NCBI GenBank assembly: GCA_037190965.1
Contig: JBBCKI010000024.1
Location: 21,005 to 85,004 of the forward strand
Reading direction: 5' to 3'
DNA: 64,000 nucleotides
From: Chthoniobacteraceae bacterium
GTDB lineage: Bacteria > Verrucomicrobiota > Verrucomicrobiia > Chthoniobacterales > Chthoniobacteraceae
Shown here: one piece after another, positions 9,847-60,532 of the stretch
Layout of the letters: each line of letters begins with the position of its first letter
Position numbering within the stretch: the first letter of the stretch is position 1
Program-made: the position numbers and the translations under genes
The notes under the pieces: model-generated
Told to the model about the DNA's origin: nothing
The model's input: the letters and a program-made list of their open reading frames with translations, nothing else
The model's database searches: none

Positions 9847-10059
9847 GTGACCGATATCGAAGGCATTTCCCGCGTCGGCACCCTTGACGGGATCATCGCC
9901 AATAACCACAATCCCGGCATTCCCCGCCAAGTGGACCCCTCGCAGGAAGCTTTTACCGTGCGCGAGACGATGAAGCGGCTGTGGGAGAGCGCGAAAGCGG
10001 CATTTGAACCAGAGGAGAGACTTGTCGGTATTCTTAAACAGGAGGACTTATTTCTATGA
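9847..10059 (+). pseudogene. hsdM: C-terminal remnant of a type I restriction-modification methyltransferase (HsdM)
   Basis: DIEGISRVGTLDGIIANNHNPGIPRQV...TVRETMKRLWESAKAAFEPEERLVGIL resembles the HsdM tail (...IxxNDYNLNIPRYV plus terminal helix); no upstream catalytic part; stop overlaps the next gene start (ATGA). Confidence 0.55.
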
Positions 10060-11102
10060 TGCTTAAACCAAAAAACATCTGGCTGCACCGCATCTCGCAT
10101 CATGCCGAAGTAGCTTATCCGCTAATCGATCGCGGTGTGCTTACGATAGGTTTTTCGGATTTTTGCACCCCTGACTTTCTTGCCAAAACGAGGGCGAAAG
10201 ATTGGGCTTACTTTGATAAAGCTTTCGCCACCGAATGGTCTGACAACCCGCGTCCGCGGACCCGCCACAATCTTGCACGCTTCATTGCCGGGATGGAAGT
10301 GGGTGATTGGGTCGTCGTCCCGTCGTGGGGTACCTTTTCGGTCTATCGCATTGAAAGTGATGCAAACTTGATAACAGGGCTGAATATTGAAGGTGTGAAG
10401 GCTTGGGGAGATCGCTCGCTAAGCAGCTCGGAAGCAGGCCTCCATATCGGTGAAAGTCATCTGGATTTGGGGTTTTATCGGCAAGTCTCTGCGGTCGAAA
10501 CAAACATTTCCCGCTATGATTTCGCGGACGGCGCGCTCACGGCACGAATGAAGATTCGTACAACCAACGCGGATATCACAGACCTCGCTGGCAGCGTTGA
10601 GAAGGCGATTGGAGCATTCCATGCGAAATGTCCGATCAATCTGCATTCCCAGATTCTTGATGTCTCGCGGGAAGCGGTTTTGAGGCTGATCCAAGAGCAA
10701 CTCAATCCAGACAAGTTCGAACGTCTCATCAAATGGTTTTTCGAGGGAGTCGGGGCCACCAATGTCGAGATTCCTGCCAAGAATGCCTCGGGTAAGGAAG
10801 GCGACGCAGACATCGTTGCCACGTTCGACCACATGCGGACTGTTTATTGTGTGCAGGCAAAGCTCCATTCAGGGGAGACAAACAGTTGGGCCGTACAGCA
10901 GATCAAGGATTTCAAGGCTCAGCAGGATCGAATGGATGACGGCTACACCAAAATTGGCTGGGTTGTCACCTCGGCGCCGTGCTTTTCAACCGAATGCGTT
11001 GAGCTTGCCAAGGAACATTCGATAGGGCTCTTTACCGGCACCGATCTCGCGCGAATGATATTGGAAGCAGGGATTAAAGACCTCGACAAAGCTTTCCTGT
11101 AG
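10056..11102 (+). CDS. Mrr-like restriction endonuclease (C-terminal Mrr_cat PD-(D/E)xK domain)
   Basis: PDKFERLIKWFFEGVG...EGDADIVA...VQAKLH...WVVTSAPCF catalytic signature; N-terminal putative modified-DNA-reading domain (MEVGDWVVVPS). Confidence 0.85.
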   Translation: MMLKPKNIWLHRISHHAEVAYPLIDRGVLTIGFSDFCTPDFLAKTRAKDWAYFDKAFATEWSDNPRPRTRHNLARFIAGMEVGDWVVVPSWGTFSVYRIESDANLITGLNIEGVKAWGDRSLSSSEAGLHIGESHLDLGFYRQVSAVETNISRYDFADGALTARMKIRTTNADITDLAGSVEKAIGAFHAKCPINLHSQILDVSREAVLRLIQEQLNPDKFERLIKWFFEGVGATNVEIPAKNASGKEGDADIVATFDHMRTVYCVQAKLHSGETNSWAVQQIKDFKAQQDRMDDGYTKIGWVVTSAPCFSTECVELAKEHSIGLFTGTDLARMILEAGIKDLDKAFL

Positions 11103-12103: not shown

Positions 12104-14998
12104 ATGATATACCGCATGAAATTGCAGCAGATTCCTCTTATGCGTAGGGTGGATGTGGTTATATTCGGTGCGGGGACGGCGGCGGTATCCGCAGCGCGGG
12201 CCGCCCGCCAAGCGGGGAATGCGGTGCTCGTCCTGAGCGACCGCGCCTATCTAGGGGAGGAATCGGCGGGGGCGCTGGAGGTGATGGAGGAGACCAGGCA
12301 CGGAGAGTTTCCCGGCAGCGGCATTGAGCCCGGGCGGCCCGGAACGGTTAAGCATGCCCTGGAGATGGCTCTATTGGAGGCAGGCGTCGATTTCCTTTTC
12401 ATGGCTAGGCCGGTCGCGCTGCTGCCGGGCCAAGAGGGAGTGATTCACGTCGTCATTGCTTCGCGCACATCGCTGTTGGCGGTAAGCACTGGGCAGGTAC
12501 TCGATGCCTCCACGCATGGGTTGCTGCGATCGTTGCCGGGGGTGGAGCGTTTTACCGCGCGGCCCCGGCGTGCGTTGAAGCGGACGGCCGCTTCAGCCAT
12601 TCTGTTTGGTAACCTGGCGTGTCCGCCTAAGCTGGATGGCGTGAGGCTCACCCCAGTTGGGCGCACTATTTTATTCACGGACCGCGTCAAACGGGACCGC
12701 ATGGAAGTGCAGGCCTTCCGCGCGCAGTCGGAGGTGGAGCCCTGTGCGCTCACTCCTGAAGGCGCAAAGGCCGAGGCGGAATTTCGCGCTCGTCTTCTCC
12801 ATCCCGGCGTTGAACTGCTGGCTGACGCCGTTCGCTGGAAGTTGACGAATACCGCCGAGGAAAATGTCGGGCTTTACGACGATCCGCTGGTTCTGACCGC
12901 CGCGCAGTATGCCGTTCACCCGCAACTTTGGATCTGCGGACCGGAATTGCCATTGAGCGACGCAGGTCTGGCGACGCTTCATGATTCCGCCATCCTCGCC
13001 GCGCTGGGGCGGCGGCTGGCGGAATTGATGGCAGCGGAAGCACGGCGTCCGGGCGCTGTAAACGGAACCGAGCGGGACAAGGTCATGCCCGGGTTCGGCA
13101 AGATCCGCTTTGTGCCCTCCTTTCTCCGCGAAACAGTAGAGATGCTGGAGCTGGAACTGCCGGAGTTTCCTTTGCTGGATCAGTTCGATGTCGTCGTGGC
13201 AGGCGGTGGAACCGGCGGGGCTCCCGCAGGAATTGCCGCTGCTCGAAGCGGGAAAAGGACGCTGGTGCTGGAGCAGCAGCGGATGCTGGGCGGCGTCGGA
13301 ACGGCGGGGACAATCGGGAGCTATTGGTTTGGTAACAAGGTCGGCTTTACGGCGGAGGTGGATAGCTTCCTGCACTCCACGGATCCCACCTATGTTGACC
13401 CGGAGCGCAAGCGCCCGCTCGCGACTTGGAATACGGAATTGAAAGCGGCCTGGTACCTGAGCCAGCTTCAGGCAGCGGGGGGAGAAGTTTGGTTAGGCAG
13501 TTTTGCCTTCGGCGTCGAGATGGACGGGGATTTCGTGGTGGGCGTTCTGGTTTCGACGCCTTTCGGCGCGGGGCTGGTGCGGTGCCGGAGTGTTGTGGAT
13601 GCCTCGGGAAATGCTGACATCGCAGCAGCGGCCGGTGCGCCACTCCGCGTGATGGACGCCTTGCACAGCGCGGTGCAGGGGGCGGGGCTTTCGCCCCGGC
13701 GAGTGGGGGCGCATTATGTGAATACGGACTTCACCTTCATCGACGACAATGATCCGTACGGGATTACCTATGCTTACGTTCAGGCCCGGGCCAAATTTCC
13801 CGAAGAGTTTGATTCCACAACGATCCTGAACACCCGGGAAAGGAGGCAGATCATCGGGCGTATCGAGCTTTCGCCGCTCGATTTTCTAGCCGGGCGGACG
13901 TTCCCCGATGTCATCAATACGGCCAGCAGCAATTTCGATACGCATGGGTTCACGACTCACCCCGTTTTTGCGGTAGTGGCTCCGGATCATGCGCCCCTCT
14001 CCGCGAATGTTCCCTTGCGTTGCCTGATGCCGCAACGGGTAAGGGGGGTGATCGTGACGGGTCTTGGCATGAGTGCTCACCGCGACAGCCTGCCGGTAAT
14101 TCGTATGCAGGCGGATGTGCAGAACCAAGGCTACGCCGCCGGGCTGGCCGCGGCGATGGCGACGGATTGTGGCGGGGATTTTGATGCGGTCAACGTCCGG
14201 GTGCTCCAGAGGGAATTGGTCGCGCGGCAGGCGCTCGCCCCGGAGGCATTGGAGTGGGAAGACAGTTTCCCTTTGCCCCGGGAGGAGGTGGTCCGTTCCG
14301 CTGCCATTACGCCAGTCACGCTTTTTTCGGCCGCCATTCTTTTTGCGCACCCGGAGGAGAGCGTCCCTCTCCTGCGAGCCGCCATGCAGCAGCCCGCTTC
14401 AGACCTTCAATACGAGGAAGCCGCGCTGATGCTCGGACTGATGGCCGACGCCAGCGCTGCCTTTGGCCTTGCGGAGCTGATTGCGGCCCGGCCCTGGGAC
14501 GAGGGATGGAATTACCGGGGCATGGGGCAATTCGGCATGAGCGCGAGCCGCACTGATGCGCTTATCGTGGCCTTGGGACGGACGCGCTCGGTGGAGGCCA
14601 TCCCGGTGCTATTGGAAAAAATGGCGGCGCTTGGGAGTGATGCCGCTTTCTCTCACTGCCGAGCCGTGGCGCTGGCAGCGGGAAGCCTCGGAGCCTCGGA
14701 ATACGTTCCCGCTCTGCAGCGGCTCCTTTCTCTGCCGGGAATGCAGGGGCATGCCATCGTCTCCTTCGGCGATGGGGTGCAGGCGGCAAACGGTGACCCC
14801 GTGGAAACCGCCTCGCGCAACAATTCCCTGAGGGAGCTTTATCTAGCCAAGGGGCTTTACCTCTGCGGCGATTGCGACGGCACGGGCCGCCGTATCCTGG
14901 AAGGGTATAGCCGCGATCTGCGCGGTCCCTTCGCCCGCCATGCCCGGGCGGTTCTGAGTGCCTCAGATTTTGAGCTGCTGCGCCGTAAGAGCATTTAA
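12104..14998 (+). CDS. FAD-dependent oxidoreductase with two FAD_oxidored-type domains and a HEAT-like C-terminus
   Basis: Two Rossmann starts (VDVVIFGAGTAA; FDVVVAGGGTGGAPAG), VVDASGNAD, RERRQIIG, PLRCLMP, GYAAGLAAA; divergent from AraC. Confidence 0.85.
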   Translation: MIYRMKLQQIPLMRRVDVVIFGAGTAAVSAARAARQAGNAVLVLSDRAYLGEESAGALEVMEETRHGEFPGSGIEPGRPGTVKHALEMALLEAGVDFLFMARPVALLPGQEGVIHVVIASRTSLLAVSTGQVLDASTHGLLRSLPGVERFTARPRRALKRTAASAILFGNLACPPKLDGVRLTPVGRTILFTDRVKRDRMEVQAFRAQSEVEPCALTPEGAKAEAEFRARLLHPGVELLADAVRWKLTNTAEENVGLYDDPLVLTAAQYAVHPQLWICGPELPLSDAGLATLHDSAILAALGRRLAELMAAEARRPGAVNGTERDKVMPGFGKIRFVPSFLRETVEMLELELPEFPLLDQFDVVVAGGGTGGAPAGIAAARSGKRTLVLEQQRMLGGVGTAGTIGSYWFGNKVGFTAEVDSFLHSTDPTYVDPERKRPLATWNTELKAAWYLSQLQAAGGEVWLGSFAFGVEMDGDFVVGVLVSTPFGAGLVRCRSVVDASGNADIAAAAGAPLRVMDALHSAVQGAGLSPRRVGAHYVNTDFTFIDDNDPYGITYAYVQARAKFPEEFDSTTILNTRERRQIIGRIELSPLDFLAGRTFPDVINTASSNFDTHGFTTHPVFAVVAPDHAPLSANVPLRCLMPQRVRGVIVTGLGMSAHRDSLPVIRMQADVQNQGYAAGLAAAMATDCGGDFDAVNVRVLQRELVARQALAPEALEWEDSFPLPREEVVRSAAITPVTLFSAAILFAHPEESVPLLRAAMQQPASDLQYEEAALMLGLMADASAAFGLAELIAARPWDEGWNYRGMGQFGMSASRTDALIVALGRTRSVEAIPVLLEKMAALGSDAAFSHCRAVALAAGSLGASEYVPALQRLLSLPGMQGHAIVSFGDGVQAANGDPVETASRNNSLRELYLAKGLYLCGDCDGTGRRILEGYSRDLRGPFARHARAVLSASDFELLRRKSI

Positions 14999-15052
14999 TG
15001 CCGGGGAGGGGACTCGAACCCCTACTCCTTGCGGAACCAGATCCTAAGTCTG
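14999..15052 (-). pseudogene. Displaced 3' fragment of tRNA-Leu(TAG), distal att site of the integrated element
   Basis: Reverse complement CAGA-CTTAGGA-TCTGG-TTCCGCAAGGAGT-AGGGG-TTCGAGT-CCCCT-CCCCGGC-A; no D-arm or 5' acceptor strand. Confidence 0.93.
15032..15052. repeat. att core direct repeat, copy 1 (CGGAACCAGATCCTAAGTCTG, 21 bp)
   Basis: Identical to 23617-23637 inside the intact tRNA-Leu. Confidence 0.93.
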
Positions 15053-15273
15053 ATATGTATCAGCTGATTTTCAGTAGTTTACAGAAAATTCGAGACACGC
15101 TGACGTGTCTTGGCTTGTGCGCAAAACTTGAATTTTTGAGGGAGAGGGGGAAACGTAAGTCTTCTTAAGGTGAGGTGAACAGCTTTCGCCACTTCGAAAG
15201 GTTTTAGTCACTCAAGAATTTAGCTCAGAGGTCTGATGGAGATTGGCGAAGCAACTCTCAGTCGCGGGTGCGC

Positions 15274-15302
15274 TTGACATTGTATAAACACTCCTTCACG
15301 AT
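15274..15302 (+). promoter_or_regulatory. Sigma70-like promoter TTGACA-N17-CACGAT for the NDT-like gene
   Basis: Consensus -35 box, 17-bp spacer and near-consensus -10 box, about 20 bp before ATG 15322. Confidence 0.55.
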
Positions 15303-15321
15303 CAAACGACTTTTTACAAAT

Positions 15322-16146
15322 ATGTCGAAGAAACTTTGTTTTATCATATCCCCCATTGGCGAAGAAGGGTCAGAAGTTCGGAAGCGTGCCGACCAAGTTC
15401 TGAGGCATGTGTTAGCGCCAGCGGTTAATGGCTGTGGCTACGAACCAGTTCGTGCTGATACGATTGCGGAGCCCGGCTTGATTACAAGTCAGATTATCCA
15501 GCACATTGTTGACGATCCCCTCGTCATTGCAGATTTAACCGGGATGAATCCTAACGTCTTCTATGAACTTGCTATCCGGCATGCTATTCGCAGACCGCTG
15601 GTTCAGGTAATTCAGAAAGGCGAAAAAATTCCCTTTGACGTTGCAGGAATGAGGACGATCCCGGTTGATCATCGGGATCTGGACAGCGTCGAAGAAGCAA
15701 AAGGTGAAATTCAAAAACAGATTAAGGCTGTCGAGAGTAAAAAGCCCGCCGATATCGATTCTCCTATCTCAGTATCCGTTGAGATCCAAAGCTTACGGCA
15801 AAGCGAAAACCCGGAGAAGAGATCATTAGCGGAATTCGTTTCGGCAGTTGCCGATTTACGGTCAGATATTGCCGCAATTGAGAAGCGCATCTCCAGCCCT
15901 GAACGGATACTCCCGGTCGAATATCTTCGCGAGGTGATGCCGATGCTTCGACGAAGGTCAAGGGATAGTGAGATGATTTATAGAGAGCTTACGTCCTACG
16001 CTCGGGAGATGATTGAAGCAATACCAGAAAAGCAACGAGAGGCAGTCAAACCGGCTTTTCTGAGATTCGACAAATTGCTTTGTATGTTGCGCGATGAATC
16101 TTCAGGCTATGAGACAGGAGGGGGGGGGCGAAGCATTTTCGGGTAA
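15322..16146 (+). CDS. Nucleoside 2-deoxyribosyltransferase-like (TIR-related flavodoxin-fold) protein with helical C-terminus; putative defence effector
   Basis: CFIISPIG...VRAD...PGLITSQII..I...LVIADLTGMNPNVFYELAIRHA...IPFDV..MRTI signature; ATG at 15322 preferred over GTG at 15268. Confidence 0.8.
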   Translation: MSKKLCFIISPIGEEGSEVRKRADQVLRHVLAPAVNGCGYEPVRADTIAEPGLITSQIIQHIVDDPLVIADLTGMNPNVFYELAIRHAIRRPLVQVIQKGEKIPFDVAGMRTIPVDHRDLDSVEEAKGEIQKQIKAVESKKPADIDSPISVSVEIQSLRQSENPEKRSLAEFVSAVADLRSDIAAIEKRISSPERILPVEYLREVMPMLRRRSRDSEMIYRELTSYAREMIEAIPEKQREAVKPAFLRFDKLLCMLRDESSGYETGGGGRSIFG

Positions 16147-16210
16147 TTCTGTCTTCGGACCTTCCTCGGATGGATATTCAGAGTTGGAGCGAATCAGTTC
16201 ATTTAGGCTC

Positions 16211-16855
16211 TCATGCAGCCAATGCTTTCTTGACTCTCTGCACGGTGGATATACCAGTTCCCGTAATCTTAGCCGTATGCCGGATTGATTGCCCTGCTTT
16301 CAATTGGCGCACAATGTCTTTGTGATTTTGCAGGAAGGTATTTCGCTCAAGTTTTGAACCTTTGGGGCGACCAAGTTTCACACCCTTGCGTCGCGCCTCT
16401 GCTAACCCGGAGTTTATCCTTTCCCGGAGAATTTCCACCTCGCTTCGAGCCATTTCAGCGAGGAGGGCAAGCATTACTCCGGCTGCTGGGTTTCTCCTTC
16501 CGTTAGGCAGAAGGGTTTCAATGCCTTGGGCGTGCCAGTAAAGGGACACGCCGCATTCCTCAAGAATCTCGACGAATCGGTGAGTGGTGCTGTTCTTGCG
16601 TGAAAGACGCGAAACTTCGTGGACGAGAATCTTTTTGATCTTTCCAGAAGAAGCAAGCTCTTCAGCGCGCCTCAGCCCGTGGCGGTCTGATTCATCCGCT
16701 CGACCAGAAATAACCTCGCGGCAAATCTCAACAACCTCGTATCCCTTTCGAGTAGCATATTCCCGCAGTTCGGAAATTTGACGGTCGGTTTCCTGTTTAA
16801 CGGTCGAAACCCTGACCAAGATTGCAACGGGAACGCTGGGGTGGCTCTTTTCCAT
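16211..16855 (-). CDS. Serine recombinase (resolvase/invertase) with C-terminal HTH
   Basis: VRVSTVKQ catalytic Ser motif, EVSRLSR, ERINSGLAEARRKGVKLGRP, HTH SIRHTAKITGTGISTVQRV. Confidence 0.93.
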   Translation of the reverse strand: MEKSHPSVPVAILVRVSTVKQETDRQISELREYATRKGYEVVEICREVISGRADESDRHGLRRAEELASSGKIKKILVHEVSRLSRKNSTTHRFVEILEECGVSLYWHAQGIETLLPNGRRNPAAGVMLALLAEMARSEVEILRERINSGLAEARRKGVKLGRPKGSKLERNTFLQNHKDIVRQLKAGQSIRHTAKITGTGISTVQRVKKALAA

Positions 16856-16874
16856 GCCTTCAGAAATGGAGGGA

Positions 16875-16987
16875 TGTATTCGAAAAATCAACTGTTTTCG
16901 TGAATACACTTATTCAGCCATTTCCTGCCAACCGGCTCTCTGTCCGTTCTGAGAAAAATCGGTGAATGTTTTTTTGAACACACTTAT
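16875..16987. promoter_or_regulatory. Candidate res site upstream of the resolvase
   Basis: Direct repeats TGAATACACTTAT (16901-16913) and TGAACACACTTAT (16975-16987); TGTATTC at 16875 is an inverted partner of GAATACA. Confidence 0.55.
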
Positions 16988-17059
16988 CGTTCTTTCATTG
17001 CAAGTTAGTCCGTGAATGACGATCCCCCCAGAATCAGATTGATCCCATTGCTGAGGAGT

Positions 17060-17702
17060 CTACCTCGCCGGAGTAGTCTTTGCTCGACGCTGGCAATCGG
17101 CACAAAACCCGGCTGATTCTGAATCGAGCAGTTCAAGGGAATCCTTCGTTTCGTCTGCCGTCATACAGCACCGGGACGCGATCCTCATAGGCGTGATGAT
17201 TCAAGTTGAGCGTATGCCCGATTTCATCGCGATTTTCACCGCTCGTTCAATCAACAATTCCGAATCTGGCGTATCCTGAGAAAGGGGATGTAGGCTTATG
17301 GTCGCCGCTGGTAGTCCGAGGTAGGCGTAACCAAACAAGAAATTGTAGCGCCGACTCGGGACGATGTTTTGCGCCGTCATGCCCAAGTTGACGAAGGTTC
17401 CTTTACGGTGTCGCCTGTAGACTTGAGCAAGGAAGACGCCAGCGGAAAGCCCCTTCCATTCTGAACGTGAAGAGGCGCGTTCGTCCAAATAGGTCGGTTG
17501 AATAACGACAGCCCCACCCAAAGGCTTCTCTGAGTCCAACGCATATCGGACCCAAGATCCCATCTTCAATGTCTCCCAGCCGCCAAATTGCAATTCCTTC
17601 GCGTGCCTCGTGAACAAGCGGTTGGTGGCACTGTGGACAGGTTAACTCGTGGATTCCCACGTAGAGACTACAGAACTGGCAGATGTTAGAGTCTCGTCGC
17701 AT
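17060..17702 (-). pseudogene. Archaemetzincin (peptidase M54)-like zinc protease with N-terminal CxxC-CxxC ribbon, broken by three frameshifts
   Basis: Segments in successive frames: CQFC..CPQC..IAIWRLGDIEDGILGPICVGLREAFG / GAVVIQP...LGMTAQNI...NFLFGYA...ATISLHPL...LIERAVKIA / EIGHTLNLNHH / RCCMTAD...SLELLDSESAGFCADCQRR*. Confidence 0.75.
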
Positions 17703-17703
17703 C

Positions 17704-18315
17704 CTACCGACGTGCTTGCGCCTCTTGCTGCACTCTGGTTTTACTCGTGCCGGTTGGAAGCTCGTACTTCAACCGGATAAGCCGTTTGTCCGTCTCGGTA
17801 GGCTGCTCAGGAAAAGGTATGACCCAAAATGAATCGTGGTCTAGTCGCGTCCGTTCCTCCCGGTCCTCTGGAAAGCCGAGACTCCAAAGCAAAAGGTAGG
17901 GAGCAATAGCCGGGTTGGTAAATCCTTCTTCACTGTAAATGGGATACCAGACCTCAGCACGGGTGATCGCTTTATTCTGGATTTTCAGTTTCGCTCCTAC
18001 CGTCACGCCGTTCCCATCGCCGTTTGCCCGGCTACCCCTTACAACGATGTCTGCTTTCTCATTCCCGTCTTCGATCAGTTTGATCTGAACAGGGAGTCCT
18101 TTCAGGGTCTCGTTAATTCCCTCCACTGCTTCTGCAATTATCGCCCGGTTGGCTCCAAATTCTCCGATGATAGAAAGAGTGGGGGATTTCTCAAACCGAA
18201 TGGATTCGCCCCGCTTTCCACACAAGACATATGTCGCAAGCTTAGGATCGATTGCTTGTACGTCCAAGGAGGACCAAACGAGGGTCGCGGCGAGAATCAA
18301 AAATGTCTTTTTCAT
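17704..18315 (-). CDS. Secreted hypothetical protein, DUF2927/zincin-like, paralog B
   Basis: Signal peptide MKKTFLILAATLVWSSLDVQA; ATGA overlap with paralog A; shares RFEKSPT.SI.G, GLPVQI, KADIV, PTE.DK..IR.KYE.P.GT with paralog A. Confidence 0.75.
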   Translation of the reverse strand: MKKTFLILAATLVWSSLDVQAIDPKLATYVLCGKRGESIRFEKSPTLSIIGEFGANRAIIAEAVEGINETLKGLPVQIKLIEDGNEKADIVVRGSRANGDGNGVTVGAKLKIQNKAITRAEVWYPIYSEEGFTNPAIAPYLLLWSLGFPEDREERTRLDHDSFWVIPFPEQPTETDKRLIRLKYELPTGTSKTRVQQEAQARR

Positions 18316-18944
18316 TTGAGCGTCTTTTTTGCGAGTTCCCGAACTTTCCATTTGTCGGTTCCAGACGGGATCTCGTACTTGAAGCGGATCGCCTGTTTGT
18401 CGATTTCGGTCGGTGTCATGGGAAGGCGTTCGCCGATATAAGACGAAACACTCCACATGGAATCTTTGCGGATCTTTTCGCCCACATTCGCAAACCCCAT
18501 CGCATTCATGATTTTATGATATGCACCTCGTTTATCGGGTTCTCCAAGAGTCCATTCTGGTAGCCAGTTCGAAATGATCGTTGCCTTAAAAATGTACCCG
18601 TTCTTATACTCTCGATCCACGTCAAAAGCTTTGCTTAACTCAGCCTGCGTGATTGGTTTCGTGTTGTAGACGATATCAGCCTTCTTGTCGTTATCGGCGA
18701 CAACAATGATCTGAACGGGAAGCCCTTCCCAGACGGCATTGAGTTCAGAGACGACCTCCAGAATCATTTTTCGATAAACACCGGGGTCTCCGACGATTGA
18801 GAAGGTTGGGGATTTCTCAAATCGAAAGGACTTTTGTCCTTGGCAGATGATCTCCGCTATAAACTTATCGTCGAGCTTTTCTTGCGCACAGGCGAGTGTT
18901 GACGCGCAGATTGAGAGAACGGCTGCCAGTAGCTTGATTTTCAT
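18312..18944 (-). CDS. Secreted hypothetical protein, DUF2927/zincin-like, paralog A
   Basis: Signal peptide MKIKLLAAVLSICASTLACA; clear similarity to the neighbouring paralog. Confidence 0.75.
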   Translation of the reverse strand: MKIKLLAAVLSICASTLACAQEKLDDKFIAEIICQGQKSFRFEKSPTFSIVGDPGVYRKMILEVVSELNAVWEGLPVQIIVVADNDKKADIVYNTKPITQAELSKAFDVDREYKNGYIFKATIISNWLPEWTLGEPDKRGAYHKIMNAMGFANVGEKIRKDSMWSVSSYIGERLPMTPTEIDKQAIRFKYEIPSGTDKWKVRELAKKTLK

Positions 18945-18970
18945 TGTTCTGTAAAAGTTATCCTTCAAAA

Positions 18971-19711
18971 TCAATTTGTTCTCCGCCGGACTCGGTAAGC
19001 AGAGAGCAATAATCCGCCTGTCATTCCGAGGAGCGCAATGCCTGATGGTTCAGGGACCACGGCAAAGTTGTTGAACGACTGCTGATTTGAAGTGGTGGAC
19101 GGGGCATTTCCGTTGAAGAAGAGGTGAAACTGCGAGATTTCAGTCCCTCCAGCGGCGGCTATCAGGTTTCCGCTTCTGCTTATGACCGTTGTCGAGCCGA
19201 TTTGATTTACGGCAATCGTGTACGAGGAAGCGCCCGTAAGAGTGAATTCGATGTGGATTCCTTGAGTCGTCTTATTCGCTGACTTCCACCCCGGTCCATC
19301 GTCATCCGTCATCGTGTAACTGGGAGTGAACCCTCCGTAACAGTCGAACTCAAAAAGTAGACTGCCCGAGGCGTTCTCCAGCTTGAACCCGGCAACGCTC
19401 CCCATTTCGAGCGTACCACTGTAGTAGTCCATGCTGAATGTTTGCCCTATCCCTAAAGCCCCGCCAAATGAACGGACCGCTTGGGCGTTTGTGCCTGTGC
19501 TTGCTTGCAAGGTCAAGGCGGTCCCTGCCGAAAACGTGCCACTGGGACCGCTAGAATTGAGGGTCCAAGAAGAGCCCCAGCCGTACCCGCCATTGCTGCC
19601 GTTGCTCCAGCCCGTCGAGTATGCGGCATTTGCAGCCCTATCGGAAGCAATGGTCGCAGAGTTGCCGTGAACAGGTAGGAGGCAGACCACCGAAAACAAG
19701 AGGGGTTTCAT
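18971..19711 (-). CDS. PEP-CTERM sorting-domain surface protein
   Basis: Signal peptide MKPLLFSVVCLLPVHG; Ser/Gly/Thr-rich body; C-terminal VPEPSGIALLGMTGGLLLSAYRVRRR. Confidence 0.92.
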   Translation of the reverse strand: MKPLLFSVVCLLPVHGNSATIASDRAANAAYSTGWSNGSNGGYGWGSSWTLNSSGPSGTFSAGTALTLQASTGTNAQAVRSFGGALGIGQTFSMDYYSGTLEMGSVAGFKLENASGSLLFEFDCYGGFTPSYTMTDDDGPGWKSANKTTQGIHIEFTLTGASSYTIAVNQIGSTTVISRSGNLIAAAGGTEISQFHLFFNGNAPSTTSNQQSFNNFAVVPEPSGIALLGMTGGLLLSAYRVRRRTN

Positions 19712-19780
19712 TTTCCCGGCAAAGCCGGAAGGGCTCAGAAAAGGCGATGCCTTCAATTGTAAATCGCTGTCCATATAAAC

Positions 19781-19872
19781 GCTCCTTTATCGGAGTAAAC
19801 AACGGGCGAGGTCAAGGAAATGTGCTCCTTTATACGAGCACTTCCATGAAATGTACCCTTTATCTTGAGTAC
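19781..19872. promoter_or_regulatory. Three related operator boxes between the divergent PEP-CTERM and XRE genes
   Basis: GCTCCTTTATCGGAGT (19781-19796), GTGCTCCTTTATACGAGCAC (19822-19841), GTACCCTTTATCTTGAGTAC (19853-19872). Confidence 0.65.
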
Positions 19873-19888
19873 CCCGTCCTACGGGGGC

Positions 19889-20164
19889 ATGAAATCCGCG
19901 CTCAACATTATCGGCTCAAACATTCGCAAGATTCGGGCTTACAAAGGTCTTACTCAGGAGCAGGTTGCCGTAAAGTGTCAGGTTTTGGGCTTCGATTTGA
20001 CTCGAGGCACCCTTGCCAAGATTGAAAGTGGCGTTAGATCGGTCTCCGACCATGAAATTCCATACCTTGCACGCGCCCTCGAAGCCAACATCGAAGATCT
20101 TTTTCCCACGGAGCTGATTCCTGTGCATCGAGAGCCAAGATTTAAGGGGAGCAGGGATCAGTGA
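19889..20164 (+). CDS. XRE-family HTH transcriptional regulator
   Basis: IGSNIRKIRAYKGLTQEQVA...TRGTLAKIESGVRSV...LARALEANIEDLF. Confidence 0.92.
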   Translation: MKSALNIIGSNIRKIRAYKGLTQEQVAVKCQVLGFDLTRGTLAKIESGVRSVSDHEIPYLARALEANIEDLFPTELIPVHREPRFKGSRDQ

Positions 20165-20509
20165 CTGAGCGCTATAAAGCCGCTGGTCGCTTCTCCCGCA
20201 AGGAATATCTCGAAGAGCAGGGGGAACCCTATGAGTTTGGAGCCGATTTAGCAGTGGATACATTCAATCGGTCCGAGAACTCATGATCGAAGAAGCGAGC
20301 CCCCGGTCCTATCTTCCTCATGATAAAACGAAACAGGGATTTGGACGCGTAGCGGACAACATCCCATCCAGTGAAAAAAGCTCGAATTGAGAGCGACAGC
20401 GAACAATTCCCGACCTCGGTCGAGCTTTTTGAAAGCTCATGAAAATAACTTAGAATTTCCGGGCTAAGGAAGTTTTAAAGAAATTCTGGATTATTCTGAT
20501 CGAGTTTCT

Positions 20510-21160
20510 CTGTGGGTCGCTTGATTCACCGACTTCGCGTCGCGTCAAGACGCGCCGCTTAGTCGGTTCATCCGCTCCTAAGTGGCTAACTGCTCATTCT
20601 TCACAGTTAGCCCAACCTGATTTTTTTGACTAAATCATCGCGTAAGCGAAACGTAGCGGTGGCGTCAAGACATGGTTAGCCCTAGACGCCGATCAAAGCG
20701 TTTTTGGGCTATAAGGAGATAGGTCTCCCGCAACAACCGCTTGCCACTCGCTTGAGTAGCTTGCTGCGTTGTGAAAACGGCAATCGTAGGTCCGACTTTC
20801 CCCTTGGTAGGGCGAATGCATCCTAGCTCTTAAGGCGAGCGTCCGTTTCCGCTATCGACTCGACCGGCTCGGGAGTCACTCCGATTAAACCAGCTAGCCA
20901 ATTTTCGACTCTTTCGAGTCTTACCGTCTCCGGGTTTTTGAGAACTTTCGTTCCGCATTTTCCACAAGATCTAGCCCGGCGCATTGAGCCTCGCTAAAAG
21001 CGCAGTTTTCGCTCCCTCAAGAGACTACTGGCATGCGCACGGCGTCGTTTCCTTATGTTTCGGGGGCGTCTGTCCGTCTATTCCAGACTACGTTGACCCT
21101 TACTCATCGTCCACCTCGAATTCCAAACAGGGGCTATGACCCATCGAGGCGGCGGGCTAG
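20510..21160 (-). ncRNA. Candidate large structured non-coding RNA (~650 nt); the distal part may instead be a DNA origin
   Basis: No ORF of 60 aa or more; more than 12 stems; GAAA tetraloops and G-U pairs on the minus strand; long-range 8-bp pairing of 21153-21160 with 20971-20978; AT-rich promoter-like DNA immediately upstream. Confidence 0.6.
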
Positions 21161-21242
21161 TTATATTTACACATTAATTAATGCTTTTTAACCGAGAATT
21201 AAAATTTTTTATTCCCACGGCATTTTCTGTGTAAAGACATGG
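21161..21242. promoter_or_regulatory. Divergent promoter region with mirrored TGTGTAAA boxes
   Basis: TTTACACA at 21166-21173 (TGTGTAAATATA on minus) and TGTGTAAAGACA at 21228-21239, each 5-7 nt before the start of the RNA candidate or the GIY-YIG ORF. Confidence 0.55.
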
Positions 21243-21809
21243 GTGAATACCCAAGGGATCGTAATTTATGCCGTAGTATGCCTTGCCGACCGACATCGCT
21301 ACATCGGCAGCACCTCAAGAATCGAGAAAAGAGCGTTAGAGCACTGGCGTGATCTTGCCAAAGGAACTCATTTCAGCAAAAGCCTTCAGGTTGCATACAA
21401 TAGGCATGGGCGTGAAATGTTTGCCTTTTTTATTCTTGAGCGGATCAAAGATGAAGATCAAGTGCGCGAGCGGGAGGAATTCTATATTGCCGATGCCATC
21501 CGAGGAGGAGAAGCATACAACGTTTCACCCGTGGGTGGCAGTAGACGAGGCTATAAACTCAGCGAAGAGACTCGTAGAAAGCAGTCGCTTGCAAAAACCG
21601 GAAAAAGGCGTCCGGGATTCGGAGCTAAGATTGCGGCGAAGATTTCCAAAGTTTACCGTTTTCTATCTCCAGAAGGTGTATTGGTCGAAACATTCGGTCT
21701 GCGTGACTTCTGCCTGCGGCATGGCTTGAGCATGGGGAATATGAGCCGTCTTGCCAGAGGTTACTTAAAGCAATGTAAGGGCTGGACGGCTGCACCAACC
21801 CTTTCGTGA
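21243..21809 (+). CDS. GIY-YIG endonuclease with NUMOD3-type DNA-binding motif (homing-endonuclease-like)
   Basis: VIYAV...RYIGST..IEKR..EH, REREEFYI, YNV catalytic residues; KLSEETRRKQSLAKTG NUMOD3; C-terminal HTH-like FCLRHGLSMGNMSRLARG. Confidence 0.9.
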   Translation: MNTQGIVIYAVVCLADRHRYIGSTSRIEKRALEHWRDLAKGTHFSKSLQVAYNRHGREMFAFFILERIKDEDQVREREEFYIADAIRGGEAYNVSPVGGSRRGYKLSEETRRKQSLAKTGKRRPGFGAKIAAKISKVYRFLSPEGVLVETFGLRDFCLRHGLSMGNMSRLARGYLKQCKGWTAAPTLS

Positions 21810-22084
21810 AGCAAAAGCGGCGGCTACAGGCATTTAAAAGCGATTGAGGGGCATTTCTGGGGGAGAAATAGTTCACCGCCCCCCGGTTCTCGCAGATTTT
21901 CCAGTGATTCCGTTTTTTTCAAAAACGGCGGCGGGGCTGTCAGGTGCTAGAAAAAGACAATCTAATGTATATCTCGCAATCAGTTCAACCTATCTGCGAA
22001 AGAGAGCAATGACTTGCGACGGGCTATTGGCTACGCCGTTTTTAACAAAAAATCAAGAAATAAAAGTTGCATTTCTGCGGATTT

Positions 22085-22321
22085 ATGATCTTGAGTTTTT
22101 TTAAATTTGTTGATAATGGTTGTGTGTCGATTGAGAACAACGAATCCGAAGACAGTATCCTAGCGTTTCGCTTTAACGCTGAGGGGGAGGCTGTTTTCCT
22201 TCAGCAGTTCAAGTCAGAGCGAGATCGTCTGGCATTGATCTCCTTTGCAAGGATCGTTGTTGACCAACTGAGCGTCGATTTCACCAAATCTTTAAGCCAA
22301 CGACAGCTTCATCTTAATTGA
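22085..22321 (+). CDS. Small hypothetical protein convergent with the integrase
   Basis: Short ORF overlapping the integrase stop; no recognisable motif; start uncertain. Confidence 0.3.
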   Translation: MILSFFKFVDNGCVSIENNESEDSILAFRFNAEGEAVFLQQFKSERDRLALISFARIVVDQLSVDFTKSLSQRQLHLN

Positions 22322-23503
22322 ATCGACTAAATGCTGATTTTTTTCCATGACTCCCTTCGGTAGTATGTTCCAAAACTTTAGCGCATCCTTGTGGTGAACG
22401 ACATCACGATAGGTATTGTACAGGAGAACTGCATTGGGATGTCCTAGGAGCACAGCCGTTGCGCTTGCATTTTTGAAAGCTGCGACGTGATAGCTGGCGA
22501 ATGAATGGCGCATCGCATTCTGATGGTATTCGATTTTAGCGCCTTCGCGGACTTTGCGCAGTCGATTTGAGTAATTCTTTGGCGACACCCTGCCTGTAGA
22601 GGCGCAGCATTCCAGCCAAGCTAACGCATTTTTTGGAATTTCATTGGACCGCCTTCTCCCCTTTTTCGCAATCGCCGCAGTGACCTCCACTCGTCTTTGC
22701 TCTAGGTTTATATGCTGCCAGTCGAGCTTCTGTGCTTCCTCGACCCGAATTCCACAGAAGAGTACAAGGACCATGCACGCGCACTCCGCCTTGGCGTTCG
22801 AATCCAGAGCGTGCTGAAGGAGTGTCTTAACATCCGCTGTGGTCAGGCAGGTAACCTTGCTTTCGATTTGTTTTGGTTTTGGAACCTTGGCAAAGGGATT
22901 GAGTTCTCGGGAGATGTAGCCGCGCTCGGCTAGAAAATTGAACAGCAGGACGCCATGTCGTAGATGGTTTCTCCGTGTGGTTTGGTTCCACTTGTGATTC
23001 TTGTTGTAAATGTACCCCTCCGCTTGCTTGAAATCCACGTTAGTAACGAGGCAGTCTTTGAAGAACTTTTGGAGTGCGCCGAAATACTCTTCGGCAGATT
23101 CGAGGTATCGCTGACTTAGACCGGCTTTGGTTTTAATTTTAAGAAACTCTCTGATTGCCTCTTTGAAGGAAATTGCGGGCTTCGATGGCTTCGCGTGTTT
23201 TAAGAAGAACTCAACGGCATCGTTGAGGGATGCGCCGTAGGGGCGCAGTTTTTCGAGTGCTCCCAAGACCTCATAGCGGGTTGATTGCGCCAAATCGGAC
23301 AGCGCCAGCGGGCTTTTCCGTCGAATTTCTTCGTCTGCCTTGCGTTTGAATTCTTGAGCTGCCGCCAAAGTGGGAAAGGTCGGCTGCTTTCTCTTCCCCT
23401 GCACCATGCCCAAATCGACCCGGTAGCTGACGCTCCCACTGCGATTTCGCTTTGGGTGGATCTTTGTTTCCGTCTTCACCTGCATCGTGAAAACGTGCCT
23501 CAA
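22292..23503 (-). CDS. int: Tyrosine recombinase/integrase
   Basis: N-terminal arm-binding domain (SYRVDLG...KRKQPTF..LAAA); catalytic GIRVEE, AKKG, NAMRHSFASYH, LLGH, Y; start at 23503 (TTG) or 23485 (ATG); adjacent to the tRNA 3' end. Confidence 0.95.
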   Translation of the reverse strand: MRHVFTMQVKTETKIHPKRNRSGSVSYRVDLGMVQGKRKQPTFPTLAAAQEFKRKADEEIRRKSPLALSDLAQSTRYEVLGALEKLRPYGASLNDAVEFFLKHAKPSKPAISFKEAIREFLKIKTKAGLSQRYLESAEEYFGALQKFFKDCLVTNVDFKQAEGYIYNKNHKWNQTTRRNHLRHGVLLFNFLAERGYISRELNPFAKVPKPKQIESKVTCLTTADVKTLLQHALDSNAKAECACMVLVLFCGIRVEEAQKLDWQHINLEQRRVEVTAAIAKKGRRRSNEIPKNALAWLECCASTGRVSPKNYSNRLRKVREGAKIEYHQNAMRHSFASYHVAAFKNASATAVLLGHPNAVLLYNTYRDVVHHKDALKFWNILPKGVMEKNQHLVDSIKMKLSLA

Positions 23504-23583
23504 AGCGTGTCTCGGTCAAGCAAAAACTTCCCGAAATTCCTTTCGAGGTGTTTTTGTAAGTCTCTGGAAATCAGAGATTTAAG

Positions 23584-23665
23584 TGCCGGGGACAGGACTT
23601 GAACCTGCACTCCTTTCGGAACCAGATCCTAAGTCTGGCGCGTCTGCCAATTTCGCCACCCCGGC
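23584..23665 (-). tRNA. tRNA-Leu(TAG), integration target
   Basis: GCCGGGG-TG-GCGAAATTGGCAGACGC-G-CCAGA-CTTAGGA-TCTGG-TTCCGAAAGGAGT-GCAGG-TTCAAGT-CCTGT-CCCCGGC-A; long variable arm; CCA not encoded. Confidence 0.97.
23617..23637. repeat. att core direct repeat, copy 2
   Basis: Identical to 15032-15052; spans the anticodon arm. Confidence 0.93.
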
Positions 23666-30383: not shown

Positions 30384-31441
30384 CTCTCTCCGCCTATCGC
30401 GGTCTCCTCGCCGCCATCACCTCCTGTTTTATTCCGCTGGGGCTTGCGCTTTCGCCCCTGAAAGCGGCCGAATCCCCCGCCGATGCCGACTGGAAAGCGT
30501 TGATGTCGCTCGATTCCGGGCCGAAGGAACCTACCACCACCCGTGAACAGGCCCGTACGGCGGCTCTTGCATTCTTGGCCAAACAGGAAAGCGCGCTTCG
30601 CAAGTTTCTGCGTGATCACCCGGCCGATTCCCGCGCCGTGGACGCCCGGTTGCGGCTCGCGCACCTGCTGGCAGTGAAGGGCGATTTTTCCGAAACGCCC
30701 GCCCTCTACGACGCAGCCCTGCGGTTGCTCGACAGCATGGAGGAAGCCGTCCCGGAGAATCGCCGTGCCGATGTCGCCTTTGCCAAGATCTCCCTCACCA
30801 TGCGGGGGGTGACCCTGCCCACGGACGCCGACCGGGAAGCGATTACCAGCCGGATGCAATCGTTTCGCAAGCAGTTCCCCAACGACCGGCGCATTGCAGG
30901 GTTGATGGCCGAGGTCGCCACCCTCTACGACAGCCAGCCAAGGCGCAAACAGACGATGCTTGAGGAGGCTTTGAAAGCCGCGCGAACCGACGAGATCCGG
31001 GCGAGGATTCACGACGATCTTAAACGCCTGGCCCTGCTTGGGACGCCGGTCGCCATCCAGGGGACAACTGCGGAAGGGAGCGCTGTCGACAGCGAGCAGC
31101 ATCGCGGCAAAGTGGTGCTCGTCTACTTCTTCGCCAGTTGGTCGGCTCCCAGCATCGCGGCCTTGGAGGAAATCCATTATCTGCGGAAGACCTTTTCCGA
31201 ACGGGAGGTCGCCGTCATCGGCGTCAGCCTCGACCCGACCCCAGAGGCGCTTCCAATGCTGAAGACCGGTTCCTGGCCCGTAATCTGGGACGGCAAGGGC
31301 TGGAGCGGCCTGCTGGTAAGAAGTCTGGGCATCAACGCGCTCCCTACTCTATGGATTCTCGATAGGAAAGGGAAACTGCGGACCCTTAATGCAAAGACCG
31401 AGAGCGAAGGGCTGATCCGCAGTTTGCTGAAGGAAATTTAG
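30380..31441 (+). CDS. TlpA/redoxin-domain protein with TPR-like N-terminus; CxxC replaced by SAPS
   Basis: GKVVLVYFFASWSAPS, GVSLD, GINALPTLWILDRKG. Confidence 0.8.
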   Translation: MTLSAYRGLLAAITSCFIPLGLALSPLKAAESPADADWKALMSLDSGPKEPTTTREQARTAALAFLAKQESALRKFLRDHPADSRAVDARLRLAHLLAVKGDFSETPALYDAALRLLDSMEEAVPENRRADVAFAKISLTMRGVTLPTDADREAITSRMQSFRKQFPNDRRIAGLMAEVATLYDSQPRRKQTMLEEALKAARTDEIRARIHDDLKRLALLGTPVAIQGTTAEGSAVDSEQHRGKVVLVYFFASWSAPSIAALEEIHYLRKTFSEREVAVIGVSLDPTPEALPMLKTGSWPVIWDGKGWSGLLVRSLGINALPTLWILDRKGKLRTLNAKTESEGLIRSLLKEI

Positions 31442-31689
31442 GCTCGCAAATATCGGGTGCGTGACGAAAAGCCCGGTAGACCGCTCTCGCCGAGAGCGCG
31501 GGATGGGGGAAGAGTGCCGTTTGGCGCCCATCCCCGCAGGACGGGCTGCTGGTGTTGGGATGCGACTCTTGTGAGTCCACGGGAGCCGAACCCCGCGCTC
31601 GACGGCGCGAGCGGTCTACCGGTGCTGCCGCACCATTCTCGTTTGGTAACTTTTCATTACAGCGAAGAACCTTCCGTTCGCTCCAACAT

Positions 31690-60059: not shown

Positions 60060-60143
60060 CGGGGAAGTGGGTAGTGTGTCGAAAGAGGCGTAGAGCCCGT
60101 TCTGACAAGGGGTGAAAAAAGAGAAGCGTTTCGAAATTCTTTA

Positions 60144-60257
60144 AGTAACTCGTGTTACTCAAGAAAAATTTTTGGATTTCTCGACCGTTTCTTTCCGTTT
60201 TTCTGTTGGGAAGGAATAAAAAAGGCTCGAATTATTCCTTTAATAACACGAGTTACT
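60144..60257. promoter_or_regulatory. Paired LacI-type operators
   Basis: AGTAACTCGTGTTACT (60144-60159) and inverted AATAACACGAGTTACT (60242-60257), 15/16 identical, in an AT-rich promoter. Confidence 0.7.
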
Positions 60258-60301
60258 GAATTTCCTTCGATCTCCAACCGAGGGAGGAAGTAGCCGAGGC
60301 G

Positions 60302-60397
60302 CCAAAGCGGTGTCTCCGCCACCGCACTCCAAGACGCTCCGCGTCTGCATGGTCCTCAACGAAACGCGAAGCGAGTGCGGCGGTTCTCCGCCGCTTT
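60302..60397. repeat. REP-like doublet (two inverted palindromic units)
   Basis: AAAGCGGTG-tctccgc-CACCGCACTCC...GAGTGCGGCGG-ttct-CCGCCGCTTT; intergenic; resembles REP-type repeats of PVC genomes. Confidence 0.6.
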
Positions 60398-60532
60398 CGA
60401 GCGCAGGAAGATCTTCCGTATTTATAGAAAGACCCCATTCGGATACGGTATGCGATTTTCAAACCGCCGAGGTGATGCTAACTGGCGATCGAAGCTCTCC
60501 CGCTCCTAAACAAAGCTTCTAGCTGTCCCTCA

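Follow-up and report, generated by a model that had tools for sequence, protein, structure and literature searches.

Two divergent genes on a genomic island

The 64,000-nucleotide (nt) stretch of DNA analysed here (hereafter the window; part of contig JBBCKI010000024.1, assembly GCA_037190965.1, from a Chthoniobacteraceae bacterium) carries an integrative genomic island, and on this island the gene of a GIY-YIG/NUMOD3 homing endonuclease lies head to head with a stretch free of open reading frames (ORFs) that appears to encode a large structured non-coding RNA (ncRNA). The two genes would both start in one AT-rich spacer and be transcribed away from each other (Table 1). An original prediction, made from the letters of the window and a list of its ORFs, had described this 82-bp AT-rich spacer before the GTG codon of the GIY-YIG gene, which we confirm, and had proposed that a structured RNA and the nuclease form a module.

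Table 1. Features of the locus and of its island (positions refer to the window)
Feature	Position	Strand	Evidence or remark
Putative full-length structured ncRNA, ~785 nt	20374..21158	-	ORF-free; fold z -4.9 to -6.8; both ends inferred
Conserved central domain of the RNA, seven helices, 48 pairs, 197 nt	20706..20902	-	Match to covariance model R1; covariation
Core hairpin, most conserved part	20856..20900	-	One G-C to A-U compensatory change; several G-U pairs
Helix H2 with enclosed sub-domain	20773..20850	-	20843-20850 pairs with 20773-20780
5' domain, closed by the long-range helix of CUAGCCCG... with ...CGGGCUAG	20971..21160	-	17-nt inverted repeat, 82% complementary; predicted minimum free energy (MFE) fold
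Terminator-like inverted repeat, both directions; putative 3' end of the RNA	20375..20430		Arms 20375-20385 and 20420-20430
AT-rich divergent control region, 82 bp, 27% G+C	21161..21242		Mirrored GTGTAAA(G/T)A motifs
Free-standing GIY-YIG/NUMOD3 homing endonuclease gene, 188 amino acids (aa), GTG start	21243..21809	+	Pfam, PHROGs, PADLOC, I-TevI domain
Integrative genomic island, ~8.5 kb	15053..23582		Direct repeats bound both ends; G+C below that of the flanks
Left-end direct repeat, copy of the 3' part of tRNA-Leu	14988..15052		65 nt, 83% identical to 23573-23637
XRE-type helix-turn-helix (HTH) protein gene	19865..20164	+	Pfam HTH_31 6.5e-8, HTH_3 1.1e-6; convergent with the RNA
Small island ORF, 84 aa	22067..22321	+	Kept beside the integrase in genome G479
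Tyrosine integrase	22292..23503	-	Pfam Phage_integrase 7.7e-13; phrog_1 5.4e-34
tRNA-Leu(tag), integration site	23583..23665	-	ARAGORN and Rfam; 3' part repeated at 14988-15052

The stretch folds better on one strand and matches no known RNA family

No convincing ORF was found between positions 20287 and 21242 (956 bp): 20 stop-to-stop frames of at least 30 aa overlap the interval, and the longest that lies inside it has 67 aa. Scanning 11 frames from the stretch with Pfam returned no family below E 0.35, and a decayed protein gene was dropped as an explanation because the scanned frames had no match. Rfam, applied to the whole window at gathering thresholds, recognised only three transfer RNAs (tRNAs); when E values of up to 10 were allowed over 20200-22100, the only match was to a small nucleolar RNA (E 4.4), which we took as chance. 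The models of group I and group II introns, RNase P, GOLLD, ROOL, OLE and HEARO gave no match at the stretch (those of GOLLD and ROOL are, we assume, part of the Rfam library). An RNase P-like RNA was also dropped as a candidate, the genome's sole RNase P RNA match lying on another contig.

We then compared the folding energy of the stretch with that of dinucleotide shuffles. For 20500-21170, the z score was -6.75 on the minus strand versus -2.55 on the plus strand (20 shuffles), and for 20510-21160 it was -4.86 versus -1.60 (60 shuffles). Nineteen control windows of 651 nt placed elsewhere in the 64 kb and folded on both strands yielded 38 z values, ranging from -2.64 to +2.42. Taken by itself, folding energy makes a structured RNA likely, short of proof. 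An enrichment of GNRA tetraloop hairpins (three in the stretch against a background of 1.8 +/- 1.4) was dropped, the count being within background.

The stretch is also rich in one short word. The hexamer TAGCCC/GGGCTA is concentrated between 20461 and 21159, which holds 7 of its 15 occurrences in the window, and in the second copy of the RNA described below (L069 7904-8447), which holds 5 of the 9 occurrences in that locus. The UAGCCC hexamers and their complements pair with one another in the predicted folds, and no longer consensus was found around them. Being mutually complementary, they may form long-range or intermolecular helices.

Compensatory changes in a second genome support the RNA structure

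A BLASTN search over all 151 genomes of the family gave a single match, in a genome of a different genus (G485, as opposed to G000, the genome of the window), with 91% identity over 55 nt (window 20851-20905). Using nhmmer, the similarity between the two genomes was lengthened to ~290 nt (E 1.5e-14). Since a MAFFT alignment of the two RNAs mis-registers the covarying helices, helices were defined by hand on both sequences, and a covariance model (R1) was built from the window sequence alone together with that structure. R1 finds the G485 copy (L069 8467-8673, minus strand) with 86.6 bits (E 1.6e-22), and nothing else above 7.5 bits in the window, in L069 or in L073, the locus of a third genome (G479) discussed below.

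The resulting model-based alignment has 212 columns, and its two sequences agree at 68% of 192 aligned positions. Each of the 48 modelled pairs is a standard pair in both sequences (96 of 96 cells), and 15 pairs have changed on both sides, a count that is inflated for reasons given below. When the 3' partner was slid by 1-3 columns, the controls showed 0-2 double changes, and 0 of 500 column shuffles reached the observed value. Counting the 48 pairs by hand gave 16 changed on both sides, two changed on one side and 30 identical. Helix H2 alone, with its eight pairs, shows six changes on both sides, one on one side and no broken pair between G000 and G485. Outside the central domain the two copies have only short motifs in common, and the folds of the 5' and 3' domains are predictions.

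Helices that have been rewritten on their two strands while the loops stayed conserved are difficult to account for without RNA structure, and the presence of a 1-nt indel in the best-conserved 55 nt speaks against a reading frame under conservation. Compensatory changes that keep helices between independent sequences are the mark of a structured ncRNA, and here they are seen between two distinct sequences. On the strength of this covariation, we consider the stretch to be a real, previously undescribed, large structured ncRNA, which bears out the original prediction on this point. It is a candidate for a new class of large ncRNA, with covariation already strong from two sequences. To our knowledge, the bacterial ncRNAs that exceed 500 nt and have an ornate, conserved fold are very few, namely OLE, GOLLD, ROOL and HEARO. 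Every one of them has led to new biology, and it was from the work on HEARO that RNA-guided nucleases came.

Strand, ends and control region

The strand of the RNA follows from two observations. In each genome 9 of the 48 pairs are G-U pairs, and the core hairpin reaches -16.6 (G000) and -18.0 (G485) kcal/mol on the minus strand, compared with -8.1 and -7.9 on the plus strand. Together with the z scores of the whole region, these place the RNA on the minus strand, read away from the nuclease gene.

Both ends of the spacer bear the same motif. GTGTAAAKA occurs at 21164-21172 on the minus strand and at 21229-21237 on the plus strand, each copy facing outwards, and these are its only two matches in the window (0.22 expected; 1 of 100 shuffles had two). 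Close variants lie at both spacer ends in G485, and in G479 two exact copies flank that genome's own spacer. We infer that the motifs are -10-like elements of two divergent promoters. On the other side of the RNA, the inverted repeat has 11-nt arms that are 100% complementary and gives an 11-bp stem on both strands, set between an A run and a T run; it would serve as terminator for the RNA as well as for the HTH operon that runs towards it.

The promoter-like motif at 21164-21172 puts the start of the RNA near 21158, and the inverted repeat at 20375-20430 puts its end near 20374. The original prediction had the RNA extend over 20510-21160; an RNA does lie there, but by motif and inverted repeat it is probably longer, running from ~21158 to ~20374. 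In G485 the ORF-free interval measures ~1.08 kb, and a perfect 10-nt long-range pair between L069 8395 and 7912 suggests an RNA of up to ~970 nt in that genome.

The nuclease is an intact homing endonuclease with its own DNA-binding modules

The protein encoded across the spacer matches the Pfam families GIY-YIG (PF01541; E 6.5e-9, 36.4 bits, cut-off 22.6) and NUMOD3 (E 1.5e-4, 22 bits, cut-off 20.4), as well as the homing endonuclease family phrog_314 of PHROGs (4.2e-21) and the HEase model of PADLOC (1.6e-15). The solved catalytic domain of I-TevI (1LN0/1MK0) matches residues 8-95 (E 2.9e-10), and E78 and N93 of the nuclease align with the catalytic Glu and Asn of I-TevI. An alignment of the nuclease with 13 relatives of comparable length (14 proteins in all) shows no variation at Y9, R30, E78 and N93, while Y20 is found in at least 90%. 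The Pfam match, the I-TevI domain match and this alignment all agree with the earlier description of the catalytic residues as intact.

The catalytic domain is followed by a modular DNA-binding region of the I-TevI/Seg type, which to judge from the sequence is made up of NUMOD3 and a C-terminal module (residues ~129-183). The latter is common to the aligned relatives (over residues ~136-181), recurs as repeats in relatives and matches phrog_2081. Its domains mark the protein as a homing endonuclease of the ordinary kind, intact, free-standing and equipped with DNA-binding modules of its own. It has the same catalytic domain as I-TevI and the intron-encoded GIY-YIG enzymes; unlike the gene of I-TevI, its ORF is not embedded in an RNA and interrupts no host gene, and neither strand has a match to a group I intron model. 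The earlier statement that no group I intron core surrounds the ORF is thus in keeping with Rfam. An ATG at 21239 lies one base out of frame with the GTG at 21243, whereas in G485 the ATG and the GTG are in frame; the window nuclease therefore seems to depend on its GTG start.

The nuclease belongs to a very populous family, with 34,021 cluster representatives at E values of up to 0.001. No close relative was found among these representatives, the best single-domain match being 46% identical, and a word-based search of 5.8 billion proteins returned 76 candidates among which there was only the nuclease itself and no close relative. Phage records that match it number 242, all at less than 60% identity, and its closest relatives at the Joint Genome Institute (JGI) bear the source label 'group I intron endonuclease'. 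A search with an alignment of relatives retrieved 12 genome and 17 metagenome loci that match over the catalytic domain only, at 26-46% identity; nhmmer, with the G485 RNA as query, found no RNA match in these 29 loci.

RNA and nuclease are kept together on otherwise different islands

In G485 a GIY-YIG protein, 53% identical to that of the window over 182 residues without a gap, is encoded directly upstream of the RNA and divergently from it. The locus is 5 kb from a tRNA-Cys and an integrase, and its cargo differs from that of the window (Table 2). Overall, the RNA is present in 2 of the 151 family genomes (by BLASTN, and by model after rejection of a candidate in G503), and close relatives of the nuclease are present in 3 of 151. 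Both copies of the RNA (2/2) have the nuclease divergently upstream and spacer motifs in common.

Table 2. The three islands with close relatives of the nuclease (percentages are identities to the window proteins)
Genome	RNA	Nuclease	Integrase	tRNA gene	Defence-like cargo	Position of cargo
G000 (window)	present	query	query	tRNA-Leu(tag)	TIR-like protein	15268-16146 (+)
G485	present, core 91% identical	53%	24%	tRNA-Cys(gca)	NotI-type restriction enzyme and D12 methyltransferase	L069 9734-11543
G479	not found	39%	43%	tRNA-Leu(tag)	NACHT protein	L073 8114-10096

The third island, in G479, has no homologous RNA that nhmmer or the covariance models could find. The slot that the RNA would occupy (L073, on G479:C117, 7128-8113) holds a different, ORF-poor stretch of ~1 kb beside the GIY-YIG gene. 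This stretch was not recognised by nhmmer or the models and has no relative in 150 family genomes. It gives good folds on either strand (z -3.1 and -4.3) and lies between the same mirrored GTGTAAAKA motifs; another transcript may take up the slot here. As far as these genomes tell, the nuclease lineage can exist without this RNA. With two RNA copies in hand, the pairing is a pattern and not a statistic.

RNA and nuclease are nonetheless better kept together than either is with its island backbone, which is the pattern expected if a small cassette moves from island to island. The original prediction had called for a look at the co-occurrence and orientation of the two genes: in both RNA copies the nuclease is present and divergent, while the G479 nuclease without this RNA makes the pairing non-obligatory for the nuclease.

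A further observation concerns the G485 locus. A match to the SAM-I/IV riboswitch aptamer (L069, on G485:C29, 6837-6952, plus strand; 42.2 bits against a gathering score of 41.1, E 7e-4) sits upstream of two unknown island ORFs (L069 6974-7213 and 7216-7869), whose end coincides with that of the RNA copy in G485.

Searches beyond the two copies

By BLASTN, the RNA has one copy in its own genome and is found in 0 of 40 relatives; in 400 genomes of the phylum there were five short matches in four genomes (23-47 nt, E 0.002-0.006), which were taken as chance, and the phage and plasmid collections gave no match. Running nhmmer over all retrieved loci revealed no RNA copy beyond that of G485. A covariance model, R2, detected nothing in 135 genomes of the order outside the family (0/135); over 150 family genomes it gave one candidate, in G503 (21 bits), which was rejected since it lies antisense inside a 559-aa ORF.

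We also searched larger collections indirectly, by using the non-coding frames of the RNA as mock-protein patterns. This gave 154 and 67 pattern matches on viral contigs and 598 on metagenome contigs, and none was confirmed. Four DNA patterns of the core run over viral contigs retrieved 0, 1, 1 and 12 loci, without a copy of the RNA. One of these loci (L074) was rejected, having no nhmmer match and lying within phage coding sequence, and model R2 found nothing on the other 13 viral pattern loci (L080-L092).

The RNA sequence does recur in a second soil metagenome study, whose contigs (X3) cover 20577-20881 and 20947-21075 at ~98% identity, so that it is not confined to the source sample. The differences amount to five other letters and one gap in the first interval and three other letters in the second; these two intervals are all that X3 covers of 19500-23580. 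Mapped onto the MFE fold, the eight variant places comprise five that are unpaired, one that turns a G-C into a G-U pair and two that would break pairs of the predicted 5' domain.

A homing cassette as the favoured explanation

We favour the explanation that the two genes form a cassette, in which a homing endonuclease carries or retains a large RNA gene on the tRNA-integrating islands of one soil bacterial family, and we give it a probability of about one half. In this explanation the endonuclease would locate DNA via its own protein modules and cut related islands or alleles devoid of the cassette, and repair would then copy the nuclease gene plus the neighbouring RNA gene. The RNA gene would in this way be spread or retained by the nuclease, much as tRNA genes are by SegB of phage T4. 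The RNA would act as RNA in its own right, with a role that is probably in island biology or in conflicts between island and phage. What favours homing is that the protein-guided architecture of the nuclease is complete and that the RNA neither overlaps nor follows its gene.

SegB offers the closest precedent. According to PMC2330249, this GIY-YIG enzyme is encoded among tRNA genes, recognises the DNA for the conserved T-loop region of tRNAs and secures inheritance close to 100% for itself and for the tRNA genes around it. PMC13096335 describes segB homologues in phages as enriched within 1 kb of tRNA genes, and SegB as amplifying anti-defence loci. The present locus resembles this system in having a free-standing GIY-YIG homing endonuclease gene, of the same catalytic domain family, beside a structured-RNA gene. 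It differs in that there is a single RNA of ~0.8 kb, of no known family and on an island of a soil bacterium, in place of the tRNAs of a lytic phage; in that the genes lie head to head with a common control region; in that homing is predicted; and in that the phage relatives are only ~30% identical. By analogy with SegB, the highly conserved DNA that encodes the RNA (the 91%-identical core) is a plausible recognition target. Were the nuclease to target this ultra-conserved core, the structural constraint on the RNA would provide a selfish gene with a stable target.

Other large RNAs keep similar company. In horizontally transferred mycobacterial tRNA arrays, a GOLLD RNA gene is reported together with an HNH homing endonuclease gene (PMC6582537), and GOLLD and ROOL are described as forming RNA-only multimers or cages (bioRxiv 10.1101/2024.12.08.627333). 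The RNA of the window is like GOLLD and ROOL in being a very large structured bacterial ncRNA on mobile DNA near a tRNA gene, and unlike them in that it has no Rfam match even at E values of up to 10 and lies on an island without phage structural genes in the PHROGs scan. Homing endonucleases that travel with, and promote, the genes of structured RNAs are an emerging theme in phage tRNA clusters, to which the cassette would add an integrative island and an RNA of giant size. Full-text searches, with subscription journals outside their coverage, turned up no account of an RNA and a nuclease paired in this way on an integrative island. In view of the SegB-tRNA association and of the GOLLD-HNH pair as reported in PMC6582537, the original statement that the pairing was not known is too strong.

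A number of observations weigh against the cassette. No nuclease-less allele of the RNA was recovered and no cassette-less target allele was found. The island of G479 is the closer one, with 43% integrase identity, insertion at the same tRNA-Leu and counterparts of both the resolvase and the 84-aa ORF, yet it is without the RNA. As to the RNA itself, the pair counts come from just two sequences, which also served for the manual curation of the structure to which the alignment was fitted, and they are inflated as a result. The G485 region folds weakly (z -1.66 over 866 nt), and G485 is a bin with ~8% contamination. At the scale of 300-nt windows only 20401-20800, in the 3' part, stands out, at a z of about -3.3 and alike on both strands, and the window has three further places with equal or better scores. 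Two of the X3 variants would break predicted pairs of the 5' domain; they come from a contig of depth 2, and the eight variant places are too few to weigh. None of the sequencing runs on record as RNA holds the stretch. Finally, with the RNA in two genomes only, shared descent of a contiguous block is inseparable from functional linkage.

The last point leads to the most serious alternative, in which RNA and nuclease genes were simply neighbours in an ancestral segment that moved as a block, and are independent of each other. The occurrence of the RNA in just two genomes, the G479 nuclease that does without it and the huge size of the nuclease family, whose members are found in many phage contexts, would all agree with common descent alone. 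We consider it unlikely, though deserving of real weight, as the integrases are only 24% identical and the tRNA sites and cargo differ, yet the pair, its orientation and the spacer motifs are kept.

Rather unlikely, in our view, is a co-regulated pair that acts in phage defence or counter-defence, whereby a common divergent switch (thrown on infection, for example) would place both products in one pathway with no guide-RNA complex. Mirrored motifs at both spacer ends in three genomes speak for a shared switch, and all three islands carry defence-like cargo (TIR-like, NotI-type restriction-modification and NACHT). Homing endonuclease models are moreover listed in PADLOC, and the promotion of anti-defence loci by SegB (as given in PMC13096335) would fit such a role. 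PADLOC's HEase models, however, annotate homing endonucleases and not a proven defence system, and G479 retains the motifs and the nuclease without this RNA.

A smaller chance still is given to an RNA-dependent GIY-YIG system, in which the large RNA would control, target or be processed by the nuclease and one bidirectional switch on defence-type islands would set off both. What speaks for some RNA-protein system is that pairing, orientation and control motifs are kept across otherwise unrelated islands. If true, an RNA-dependent GIY-YIG system would be the first of its kind, and any interaction of RNA and nuclease would make this a new kind of RNA-protein nuclease system.

A specific form of such an interaction, a ribonucleoprotein in which the RNA guides, activates or scaffolds the GIY-YIG enzyme in the manner of HEARO/IscB or TnpB, seems to us improbable. 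The large size of the RNA and its adjacency to the nuclease in 2/2 copies would suit it, as would the general likeness to those systems, in which a nuclease gene on a mobile element has a large structured RNA next to it. In HEARO/IscB and TnpB, the RNA is on the same strand and overlaps the gene or the end of the element, and the RuvC/HNH-type nuclease needs the RNA. In the window, the RNA lies on the other strand, divergent from the nuclease gene and separated from its start codon by 82 bp, with no overlap between the two. The protein is a GIY-YIG enzyme with its own DNA-binding modules, and Rfam has no HEARO match; an IscB/TnpB-type system was rejected as a candidate. In addition, the 188 aa are filled by GIY-YIG, NUMOD3 and the C-terminal module, leaving no room for an added RNA-binding domain, and the G479 nuclease homologue is without this RNA.

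Very improbable is a toxin-antitoxin-like pair in which the nuclease would be toxic and the RNA would neutralise it, stabilising the island. Tight linkage, a common control region and a mobile island are what one would expect of such a pair. A type III system (ToxIN-like) was rejected as a candidate, because the same-strand tandem repeat array is missing: the only repeat in 20200-21900 has a 9-nt period and 2.2 copies (20 nt). Divergent transcripts that do not overlap make antisense control of type I unlikely. The RNA antitoxins known to us are also far smaller than an RNA of ~785 nt with a complex fold. Hardly credible, finally, is a DNA-level element (an origin, a recombination site or a protein-binding array) instead of an RNA gene: the concentration of the TAGCCC/GGGCTA hexamer and a 3' part that folds equally on both strands would fit it, but the compensatory changes keep helices whose nine G-U pairs can form on one strand only, and the hexamer copies lack a longer consensus and pair mutually in the predicted fold.

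The original prediction had offered three models: homing of the RNA gene by the nuclease, an RNA-protein complex or toxin-antitoxin pair, and phage-triggered interference functions of a satellite. Homing, for which SegB is a precedent, fits best and would be the most likely link between the two genes, with an RNA-protein complex unlikely. As for the proposed module, what survives is a conserved head-to-head cassette (2/2); nothing beyond adjacency speaks for a complex or a toxin-antitoxin pair, against the former stand a complete protein-guided layout and an RNA on the opposite strand without overlap, against the latter the lack of a tandem-repeat antitoxin array. The satellite part is not supported either, as described in the next section.

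The host island and its surroundings

The island has a G+C content of 0.47-0.53, against 0.57-0.64 in the flanking DNA. With a tyrosine integrase beside a tRNA gene and a repeat of the 3' part of that tRNA at the far end, it has the features of a tRNA-integrating island. Leftwards from the tRNA, the integrase (-) is followed by the 84-aa ORF, the GIY-YIG ORF (+) and the ORF-free stretch, and farther left by a 41-aa ORF and the XRE-type HTH gene (+), a 267-aa protein, two unknown paralogues, a resolvase and the TIR-like protein.

Among the 11 island proteins scanned with PHROGs, the matches were limited to an integrase, an invertase, HTH families, a homing endonuclease and one family of unknown function; no structural, packaging or replication family was among them, and we therefore term the element a genomic island and not a satellite. 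A phage satellite, whether of the phage-inducible chromosomal island (PICI) or the P4-like kind, was rejected as a candidate on the same scan, since it would carry genes for capsid redirection, packaging or replication along with the integrase; the satellite of the original prediction goes with it. The integrase has no relative in a search of genome contigs, and its best matches in the phylum sample are just 30-35% identical.

Several of the remaining proteins can be placed. The TIR-like protein matches PADLOC (3.8e-10) and phrog_3634 (1.6e-53), and the HTH protein matches transcriptional repressor families of PHROGs in addition to its Pfam families. The 84-aa ORF has no family in the Pfam and PHROGs scans and is 41% identical over 46 aa to the product of L073 4226-4522 (E 2e-12). 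The 267-aa protein has a PEP-CTERM-like C-terminus when the sequence is inspected by eye, and no Pfam family at E 0.01. The two paralogues (17704-18974, minus strand) are adjacent ORFs of 250 and 220 aa with signal-peptide-like N-termini; they have a 44-nt repeat in common that is 82% identical, and the Pfam and PHROGs scans assign them to no family.

Elsewhere in the window, the 300-nt windows 31401-31700 and 60101-60400 have z values of -3.3 to -4.5 on both strands; corrected for base composition, their folding thus equals or exceeds that of the RNA region. About 4 kb beyond the left end of the island, at 10056-11102 (+), lies a gene for a protein with an Mrr-type restriction endonuclease domain (Pfam Mrr_cat, 4.1e-12).

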